From NCBI RefSeq assembly GCF_003334785.1, contig NZ_QOWV01000002.1: 64,000 nucleotides of DNA. One strand, given 5' to 3'. This document shows, one piece after another, positions 45,001 through 48,000 of this stretch. How positions within the stretch are numbered: position 1 is the first letter of the stretch; each line of letters starts with the position of its first letter. Made by a program: the position numbers. The stretch comes from Escherichia coli. Its GTDB lineage: Bacteria > Pseudomonadota > Gammaproteobacteria > Enterobacterales > Enterobacteriaceae.

Positions 45001-48000
45001 ATCGTCTCGGCGGTGATGAGTGCCAAATTACTTTACGACAGCCACGGACAGGAGATCCTCCACTGGTTGGGGATGAACTAATGAACAGTACACACCACTA
45101 CGAGCAGTTGATTGAAATTTTTAATAGCTGCTTTGCCGATGATTTTAATACCCGTCTGATTAAAGGCGACGACGAACCGATCTATCTTCCTGCTGATGCG
45201 GAAGTACCGTATAACCGAATCGTCTTTGCTCATGGCTTTTATGCCAGCGCAATTCATGAGATTTCGCACTGGTGTATTGCCGGGAAAGCGCGCCGTGAGC
45301 TGGTTGATTTCGGCTACTGGTATTGCCCGGACGGACGCGATGCCCAAACGCAAAGCCAGTTTGAAGATGTTGAAGTGAAGCCGCAGGCGCTCGACTGGTT
45401 GTTCTGTGTGGCGGCGGGATATCCGTTTAACGTCAGTTGCGACAATCTGGAAGGGGATTTCGAACCGGATCGTGTGGTGTTTCAACGGCGAGTACATGCG
45501 CAGGTGATGGATTATCTGACAAATGGCATTCCGGAACGTCCGGCACGCTTCATTAAAGCACTACAAAATTATTATCACACGCCGGAACTTACGGCGGAAC
45601 AGTTCCCGTGGCCGGAAGCGCTCAACTGAAGCCAGCGCCACGTTTTACAATGAGGAAAGAAGATGATCGCGGAGTTTGAATCACGCATTCTGGCATTAAT
45701 CGACGGTATGGTTGACCATGCCAGTGATGATGAGTTGTTTGCCAGTGGGTATTTGCGTGGCCACCTGACATTAGCCATCGCAGAACTGGAAAGTGGTGAT
45801 GACCACTCCGCTCAGGCGGTGCATACGACCGTTAGCCAGAGTCTGGAAAAAGCCATTGGTGCTGGTGAATTGTCGCCGCGTGACCAGGCGCTGGTGACCG
45901 ATATGTGGGAAAACCTGTTTCAGCAGGCGTCACAGCAGTAAGTTGCGGCGTCTGGAGCAGCATGCCTGATGCGACGCTTATCGCGTCTTATCAGGCCTAC
46001 ACGTCACACGTAGGTCGGATAAGGCGTTCACGCCGCATCCGGCAAACACTGCGAGAGCAGATTACCCCGCCTTAACCGCTTTACCCTTCAACAATTTCCG
46101 CACCCATAACCGATTCGGGTTTAACGCCGCCAGCGTACTGGCATCCATCGGAATCGGTTCGTCGCTCATCTGCGCCGCCAGAATCTCGGCACACAGCGGG
46201 GCAGAACACAAACCGCGAGAACCTAAAGCCGCAAACATAAAGAGATCGTCAAAAACCGGCGCGCTTACCGCCTCATCTTTCTGCTCCGCCAACGACGCAT
46301 ATTCCACGAGTGTTGCCTCATAATCGGGAACATTGCCTACCATTGGCAGATGATCGCGGGTGGCACAACGCACACCGCAGCGCGCCTCTTTATCACTGAC
46401 ATCAACCTCTTTTGCCCACTGTGCCTGCGGGAAACAATCAATCAACCGCTGGCGATTCTGCTGCTGATCGTCCTCACTGTACGCCGTATCTTCGCTGCCG
46501 CGATGATAACTGGCACCAATACAATGATGTTGATTCGCCGGATTTTGTGGCGTGAGATAACCGTCATAGCACAGCACCTGCTTCAGCTCTGCCAATTCCG
46601 GCGTTGTCGGAATATGGCTGACCTGCCCGGCAACCGAATACACCGGGAGAGTCGACGTTTGGCTGAATCGGCTGATTTGATGCCCGTTCGCCAGTACCAC
46701 TACGCTGTGTGTTGCTTGCTGATCTCCTGCAAAATTCAACAACCAACAGTCATCCTTACGGGATAAATTCTGTAACTGATATTGATAATAAATCTGCAAA
46801 CCCTGCTGTTGCGCCAGTTCCAGCACATTACGGGTCAGTTCTGCTGGGCACAGCCAACCACCTTGCGGATAAGTAATGCCGCTGCAATTTGTCGCAACGC
46901 CCGTAATTTGTTCAACCGCATTTGCCTCAACGGCTACAGCCAGTTCTGCGGGTAAATCCATTGACAACATCTGTGCGATTTTATGCTGGCTTTTCTCATC
47001 CCAGCCTAACTGCGTGACGCCGCACCAGTCATGATCAAATTTAACGGGTAATTGGTCGTAAAACCGACGAGCAAAAGTAAACGCATTAGAGAAAAAGCGG
47101 TTTAGCGCCTCATCGTGTTTGCTTAATAACGGATACAGCGCCCCCTGGCGATTGCCGGAAGCACCCAGTGCGGGGGCCTCATCCGCGCAATAAAGCGTTA
47201 CCTGCCAGCCGCGCCGTAATAGCGCCAGCGACAACAACGCGCTGGCAATACCACCGCCGATAATCGCCGCTTCCCGTTTGCTGCTGCCCGTGCGGTTAAA
47301 CCACGGCGCGGAGCAGGGGAGCGGTAATGTCTGTTCCATCACCCCGCAAAGCATTTCCCGTTTGCGCCCAAAGCCCTTACGTTTTTGCATCGTGAATCCG
47401 GCGTCCTGCAAACCGCGGCGGACAAAACCGGCAGACGTAAATGTCGCCAGCGTGCCGCCCGGACGCGCCAACCTTGCCATGGCGTTAAACAGATTTTGCG
47501 TCCACATATCCGGGTTTTTCGCTGGCGCAAAGCCGTCCAGAAACCAGGCATCTACTTTTTGATTTAGCGAATCGTCCAGTTGGCTGGTCAGTTCGTTAAT
47601 ATCGCCAAACCATAAATCCAGCGTCACGCGGCCTTCATCGAGCAATAAACGATGGCAACCGGGCAAGGGCATTGGCCACTGCGCCTGAAGTTGTTCTGCC
47701 CACGGAGCCAGTTCCGGCCAGTGTTGATGCGCTAAGGCTAAATCCGCACGGGTGAGGGGAAATTTCTCAAAACTAATGAAATGTAAGCGTTGTAATTGCG
47801 CTTGCGGATGCGCTTCGCGAAACTGATCAAATGCCTGCCATAGCGTCAGGAAGTTTAATCCGGTGCCGAAGCCGCTCTCTGCTACCACAAACAGAGGATG
47901 TGGATGCTCAGGAAAGCGTACCTCTAATTGGTTGCCTCCCAGAAAAACATAACGCGTCTCTTCCAGCCCGTTATCGTTGGAAAAATAGACATCGTCAAAA

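Follow-up and report, generated by a model that had tools for sequence, protein, structure and literature searches.

REP and BIME-2-type repeats at three intergenic sites in a K-12-like segment of the Escherichia coli chromosome

A 64,000-nucleotide (nt) stretch of Escherichia coli DNA (NCBI RefSeq assembly GCF_003334785.1, contig NZ_QOWV01000002.1; hereafter, the window) carries five repetitive extragenic palindromic (REP) units, members of the class of E. coli repeats that is the most abundant and has been known the longest, at three intergenic sites that follow the genes yfcL (site 1), fabB (site 2), and dedD (site 3). All five are unremarkable examples of the E. coli REP (palindromic unit) family, and those at sites 1 and 3 form pairs of the type known as bacterial interspersed mosaic element 2 (BIME-2). 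The explanation that we hold to be very probable for the whole of the evidence is that these are ordinary REP/BIME elements, i.e., RayT-related DNA with a local hairpin effect in 3' untranslated regions (UTRs), which also offers targets to the insertion sequence (IS) IS621. Nothing in them departs from the known behavior of E. coli REPs and BIMEs, and the finding is in this sense already known; the loci nevertheless provide clean examples of textbook REP behavior, namely, BIME-2 copy steps, empty-site alleles, and an occupied IS621 target.

Five REP units in the window

The window reads the reverse strand of a K-12-like E. coli chromosome (window position x corresponds to NC_000913.3 position 2489832 - x) and is 99.976% identical to that reference. 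Between 42832 and 64000 there are 5 mismatches to MG1655 in 21,169 bases, the 1 kb surrounding site 1 matches K-12 MG1655 with 100% identity, and the check confirms the window as Escherichia chromosome. REP units were sought over both strands of the 64 kb by a fuzzy scan with the REP head GCCKGATGCGRCG and tail CGYCTTATCMGRCCTAC, with up to 3 mismatches allowed. This returned exactly five units at the three intergenic sites, all of which proved to be extragenic when the window was mapped onto the genes of NC_000913.3. Two other candidates from the three-mismatch scan (15177 to 15189 and 16843 to 16859) were rejected, being intragenic and nonpalindromic. The mapping also upheld the gene contexts proposed in a first-pass annotation of the window: yfcL (stop, 45941) converges on mnmC, which is encoded on the other strand (stop, 46062); fabB (stop, 49447) is followed by yfcJ (start, 49712); and dedD (stop, 58810) is followed by cvpA (start, 59069). 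Counted from the stop codon, the first hairpin is 22 nt away at yfcL, 18 nt at mnmC, 6 nt at fabB, and 9 nt at dedD. An Rfam scan of the whole window at the gathering thresholds found no RNA family at the three REP sites, its sole match being the argW tRNA, and the RefSeq annotation of NC_000913.3 has no repeat feature at any of them.

At site 1, a z2 unit and a y unit stand tail to tail. The z2 unit (45964 to 46000) has its GTAG on the minus strand, the plus strand reading GCCTGATGCGACGC..CTTATCAGGCCTAC, and folds into a hairpin of -21.3 kcal/mol (z = -6.3); its tail, at 45990 to 46000 on the plus strand, matches the IS621 target motif ATCAGGCCTAC. A 9-nt linker without an integration host factor (IHF) consensus (ACGTCACAC; 46001 to 46009) separates it from the y unit on the plus strand (46010 to 46043; GTAGGTCGGATAAGGCGTTCACGCCGCATCCGGC), the hairpin of which (-18.2 kcal/mol) has the AA/GC internal loop. 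Site 3 has the same plan: a minus-strand z2 unit (58820 to 58855; -21.4 kcal/mol) with an IS621 target at 58845 to 58855, a 14-nt tail-to-tail linker (58856 to 58869; GCAGGGGTAGAACC) that is repeated in each of the tandem copies of other strains, and a plus-strand y unit (58870 to 58903; -19.0 kcal/mol). This z2 unit matches a strict 36-nt consensus with 0 mismatches (expected number, 0.00 from 100 shuffles); the loop of the site 1 z2 unit is one base longer, and the strict pattern, with its 4-nt loop, therefore misses it. The repeat unit of the site 3 BIME-2 is 91 nt long (58823 to 58913) and is associated with a direct repeat, TTGCC, at 58818 to 58822 and 58909 to 58913; it has the composition z2-14-y-7, the last number being the head-to-head linker of 7 nt seen in multicopy alleles. 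The unit at site 2 is a solitary and diverged REP on the plus strand (49454 to 49489; GTAGGTCGGAGTAGACGCGCCAGCGTCGCATCCGAC; -20.7 kcal/mol), with a y-like lower stem and a z2-like upper stem.

Sites 1 and 2 are already catalogued in the supplement of bioRxiv 10.64898/2026.03.23.713779, the former as REP171 (convergent mnmC/yfcL; NC_000913.3 2443790 to 2443869, i.e., window 45963 to 46042) and the latter as REP170 (tandem fabB/yfcJ; 2440344 to 2440379, i.e., window 49453 to 49488), while the dedD-cvpA BIME is absent from two tables of that supplement. The spans given in the first-pass annotation for sites 1 and 2 agree with these entries, but its end for site 3, 58925, lies about 21 nt past the end of the last unit (58903). 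The stretch from 58904 to 58925 comprises linker sequence and native flanking sequence, the latter being present also in strains that lack the BIME. Just downstream of the BIME, and likewise kept in BIME-less strains, is a small native hairpin, ATGCC-GCAAA-GGCAT (58914 to 58928); its 5' flank, TTGCCCGATGCC, resembles a REP head, and the stretch at this hairpin, 5' flank included, supplies the TTGCC copy at the right-hand boundary of the 91-nt unit.

For classification, we used three reference REP sequences from PMC11208160 and unit lengths from PMC8266576. The z2 units match the z2 reference at 34/37 positions (site 1; aligned region, 45963 to 46001) and 37/37 positions (site 3; 58819 to 58856), and both y units match the y reference at 33/35 (46010 to 46044 and 58870 to 58904), while the fabB unit (49454 to 49490) is nearest to z2, at 30/36. 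Folded alone, each of the five forms a single hairpin (-18.2 to -21.4 kcal/mol; z between -3.9 and -6.3), and each has at its 5' foot the conserved GTAG tetranucleotide (CTAC on the opposite strand), described as a requirement in PMC3333891 and PMC3479197. The canonical AA/GC internal loop (GAT-AA-G.../...C-GC-ATC) is present in four of the five, the fabB unit having a larger loop in its place. Carried out as the first-pass annotation had proposed, the consensus search and the comparison with E. coli REP families thus bear out its recognition of REP-type palindromes at all three sites; its description of them as near-identical holds for sites 1 and 3 but not for the solitary, diverged fabB unit.

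The paired arrangement points to BIME-2, which in the Bachellier/Gilson nomenclature (summarized in PMC3333891) denotes y and z2 units with short linkers and a varying number of tandem copies. At both sites 1 and 3, the y and z2 units are inverted and tail to tail (..CCTAC linker GTAGG..). A REPIN is an inverted REP doublet that replicates as a unit and forms one long hairpin; doublets are present at these two sites, but their arms are of different types and the minimum-energy fold consists of two separate hairpins, and site 2 is a singlet. A 28-nt-word search of complete E. coli genomes placed the site 1 query at a median of 24 places per genome and the site 3 query at a median of 17, whereas the fabB unit was found at a median of 1 place, with nothing else above the search threshold in any genome. 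The rayT gene (b0228), which in the K-12 reference lies outside the window, is itself flanked by y and z2 units; our labels agree with these flanking units, which are the substrates named y and z2 in PMC3333891 and PMC3479197.

Variation among strains, IS621 insertion, and distribution across genera

We surveyed the alleles of the three sites in 5,426 complete E. coli genomes. The dedD-cvpA spacer of site 3 measures 167, 258, 349, 440, or 531 nt in different strains, corresponding to 0, 1, 2, 3, or 4 copies of the repeat unit; there is one copy in K-12, three are present in O157:H7 strain 86-24 and four in Nissle 1917, and the BIME-less allele is found in 136 genomes. Such variation from 0 to 4 copies in 91-nt steps is the defining behavior of BIME-2 (PMC3333891).

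The site 2 locus is a small hypervariable region. The bulge of the K-12 allele reads GGA-GTA-GACGC, against GGA-TAA-GACGC in the canonical form, with no change in unit length; the canonical form is seen in another E. coli strain and in E. albertii. Many strains carry the canonical unit (GTAGGTCGGATAAGACGC..) after one to four 9-mers in tandem that stem from the GTAG foot; in one strain, a 25-mer representing the 3' half of the REP is present four times in tandem, and 105 genomes have a REP-less allele. The 5' foot of the fabB REP (49454 to 49467) is by itself a 9-nt minisatellite, (GTAGTCGGA)n, with 0 to 4 extra copies between strains. The suggestion in the first-pass annotation that these repeats are hotspots of rearrangement is thus well founded, both in the copy steps of site 3 and in the 9-nt and 25-nt expansions and REP-less alleles of site 2.

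Site 1 has the K-12 arrangement in about 4,830 genomes (5,208 with at least 80% coverage minus 378). The 378 have a single-REP allele, in which the yfcL-mnmC spacer (window 45942 to 46061) is 55 nt long and contains one y-like hairpin that lacks GTAG (..GTAATGTGCCGGATAAGGCG..; e.g., strain E686). This allele may be ancestral or the product of a deletion; a simple deletion between the two GCCKGAT arms would, however, leave a spacer of 74 nt rather than the 55 nt observed. In the sample of E. coli genomes, no strain has more than one pair at this site, the only alternatives to the pair being the GTAG-less single unit and an insertion of IS621.

IS621 is a bridge-RNA recombinase element of the IS110 family. 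The natural target of its bridge RNA is the 11-nt ATCAGGCCTAC (Durrant et al. 2024, PMC11208160), and the same paper cites Choi et al. (2003) for IS621 targets in REPs. This 11-mer ends both z2 units of the window (45990 to 46000 and 58845 to 58855). Using a junction query with ample unique flank, we found IS621 exactly at the CT of the REP171 z2 tail in 200 of the 5,426 genomes (3.7%, a count of genomes and not of independent events), in keeping with the earlier description of these repeats as IS insertion hotspots. The junction reads ..ATCAGGCCT / TGTATTATCC ... AACAGTAT CT / ACACG, which puts the insertion point at window position 45998/45999; in strain A39, for example, IS621 occupies approximately positions 2724 to 4002 of the locus, with the junctions GGCCT/TGTATT...ACAGTAT CT/ACACG. 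Among the occupied genomes are those of a rodent isolate from Australia and of an O103:H2 strain. On the evidence of site 1, the natural landing site of IS621 is the ATCAGGCCTAC tail of the z2 units.

A second survey covered 21-kb loci around pdxB from 80 Enterobacteriaceae species, with the three spacers delimited by tblastn. At the three orthologous sites, the E. coli representatives and E. albertii alone had units of the y/z2 type. REP types of their own are found in the yfcL-mnmC spacer of several Citrobacter species and of Cedecea, Pseudescherichia, Pseudocitrobacter, and Leclercia; Salmonella has no REP there and a different GC-rich hairpin instead. Most other genera have a terminator directly after fabB and a REP-free dedD-cvpA spacer, which in several of them is about 165 nt long, near the length of the BIME-less allele in E. 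coli (167 nt). On this distribution, the elements read as lineage-specific additions to preexisting 3' regions, which supports the remark in the first-pass annotation that they help confirm the host lineage. The yfcL frame of E. albertii is three codons longer than that of E. coli, and its stop is the TGA within the REP head (GCC-TGA-TGCG); the gene thus ends inside the head, and the repeat supplies its stop codon.

Roles as DNA and RNA and competing explanations

As DNA, the units would be nonautonomous repeats of the kind that the REP-associated tyrosine transposase RayT binds and cuts as single-stranded hairpins. RayT binds the single-stranded REP via GTAG and the AA/GC bulge and cuts at CT (PMC3333891, PMC3479197, and PMC8266576). 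By analogy, it may act on the copies described here, and whole 91-nt units could be gained or lost through RayT or by slippage of one repeat on another. BIME-2 elements have also been reported to be bound and cleaved by DNA gyrase.

As RNA, the units most likely act as 3'-UTR hairpins that would block 3'-to-5' exonucleases locally and serve as partial terminators, in part with the assistance of Rho. We favor this local effect because each unit lies in a 3' UTR and forms a stable hairpin that is not followed by a U-tract; REPs in 3' UTRs have been described as partial terminators and blocks to RNA decay (bioRxiv 10.64898/2026.03.23.713779). REP171 is row 190 of the bidirectional-terminator table of the same work, with a transcript overlap at 2443832 to 2443873 in both log and stationary phases. 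Converted to window coordinates, this overlap of the convergent transcripts (45959 to 46000) coincides with the z2 hairpin. According to the supplement, REP171 is overlapped by one in vitro Rho-binding peak, and a second peak is located 61 nt downstream of REP170. REP171 may serve both convergent operons. The fabB and dedD elements could affect translation or RNA stability: REPs closer than 16 nt to a stop codon can reduce translation (as summarized in PMC12306157), and these two sites lie within that distance, where such an effect has been proposed. Their hairpins, at 6 nt and 9 nt, respectively, would be near enough to the stop codon to stall terminating ribosomes.

Several observations weigh against giving these elements a larger role. 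At all three sites, there are natural alleles in which the whole element or half of it is missing, and most other genera have no REP at the fabB and dedD sites, showing that no unit is indispensable. Sites 2 and 3 also have intrinsic terminators of their own downstream, neither of them part of a repeat, and the REPs are therefore unneeded for termination there. That of fabB (49523 to 49549, plus strand; AAAAGGGAACC-TGAT-GGTTCCCTTTT plus T, recognized from its fold) defines the 3' UTR that holds REP170 and is kept directly after fabB in genera without the REP; that of dedD (58939 to 58975, plus strand) has a 12-pair stem followed by TTTATTG and is conserved across genera. Genome-wide, the mRNA half-lives of REP-bearing genes do not generally differ from those of other genes (bioRxiv 10.64898/2026.03.23.713779), which, together with the natural REP-less alleles, suggests that any regulatory effect is probably modest. 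Lastly, REP170 in its K-12 form lacks the bulge TAA needed by RayT and, judged from this sequence, is probably not a RayT substrate.

The nearest competitor to the above-described reading is that the units are repeat debris, selfish or neutral, which leaves the neighboring genes unaffected and whose position reflects only where insertions are tolerated. The same polymorphism in presence and copy number at all three sites within E. coli, the REP-free fabB and dedD sites of most other genera, the lack of a genome-wide effect on half-life, and the status of the K-12 fabB unit as a decayed copy are all what this would lead one to expect. It accounts poorly, however, for the 3' ends of both convergent operons, which in the published tables flank the REP171 z2 hairpin in two growth phases, at a place where Rho binds in vitro, or for the terminator and stabilizer effect measured for REP325 (bioRxiv 10.64898/2026.03.23.713779), or for the occurrence of some GC-rich hairpin, whether a REP or not, in the yfcL-mnmC spacer of many of the genera examined. 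We consider neutral debris unlikely on balance, though with an appreciable chance of being right.

Two other identifications concern what the hairpins are. GC-rich hairpins immediately 3' of genes, one of which (site 1) coincides with mapped transcript 3' ends, could be the genes' own intrinsic (Rho-independent) terminators that merely resemble REPs. Yet none of the five has a T-run after it, and the terminator scan has no entry at their coordinates; the canonical terminators of fabB and dedD are separate and downstream; and the units match multicopy REP references at 83 to 100%, with the site 1 and site 3 queries recurring at medians of 17 to 24 places per E. coli genome. As a description of what the units are, this identity is refuted, and we rate it as extremely improbable. 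As for the pairs, two inverted units and a linker are common to any BIME, including BIME-1, whose IHF-binding RIP/RIB sites would organize DNA. BIME-1 is defined, though, by z1 plus y and a long conserved L linker, frequently with an IHF site (PMC3333891), whereas the partner of y here is z2 (34/37 and 37/37), the linkers are just 9 and 14 nt long, and no match to the IHF consensus WATCAANNNNTTR was found in any of the three intergenic regions. No z1 unit is present either; BIME-1 is refuted and retains practically no chance of being correct.

Within the reading of these loci as ordinary REP/BIME elements, a more far-reaching idea is that variation of the fabB REP (the 9-nt repeat, the 25-nt tandem, the bulge mutation, and the REP-less alleles) might act as a natural dial on FabB output between lineages, and the same reasoning could be extended to the dedD BIME with its 0 to 4 copies. 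We regard this as a long shot. The gene in question is an essential one of fatty acid synthesis, and its REP, 6 nt after the stop codon, lies within the range for which stalling of terminating ribosomes is reported.

Neighboring features and comparison with known systems

Some other features of the window deserve brief mention. Upstream of cvpA-purF, the sequence ACGCAAACGTTTTCT (58998 to 59013) is conserved in all of the genera examined; it resembles the PurR operator of the purF operon. The cryptic prophage CPS-53 (13249 to 23463) adjoins the tRNA-Arg gene argW (23452 to 23523), with no REP units in or near the prophage. A direct repeat of 300 nt (62503 to 62802 and 63506 to 63805; 70% identity; spacing, 1,003 nt) corresponds to argT and hisJ, paralogous genes that encode periplasmic binding proteins.

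The loci can be compared with three known systems. With BIME-2 as a class, sites 1 and 3 share inverted y and z2 units, short linkers, and the lack of an IHF site; the tandem copies of site 3 vary between strains, and the flanks of rayT in the K-12 REPtron have the same unit types. They differ in that each locus in the window has one pair only. With regard to IS621, the natural insertions at site 1 have the expected CT core and the IS ends TGTATT...ACAGTAT, whereas the window itself carries no copy of IS621. A functional parallel is REP325 (yjdM-yjdN), an experimentally dissected BIME-2 with Z2/Y hairpins in a 3' UTR that stabilizes mRNA and also works as a partial terminator, in part dependent on Rho (bioRxiv 10.64898/2026.03.23.713779); REP171 resembles it in overlapping both a Rho-binding peak and a mapped terminator region. 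REP325, however, has 12 hairpins, and its Rho dependence is seen only with the full array, while one or two hairpins, the number found at the sites described here, showed none in that study.

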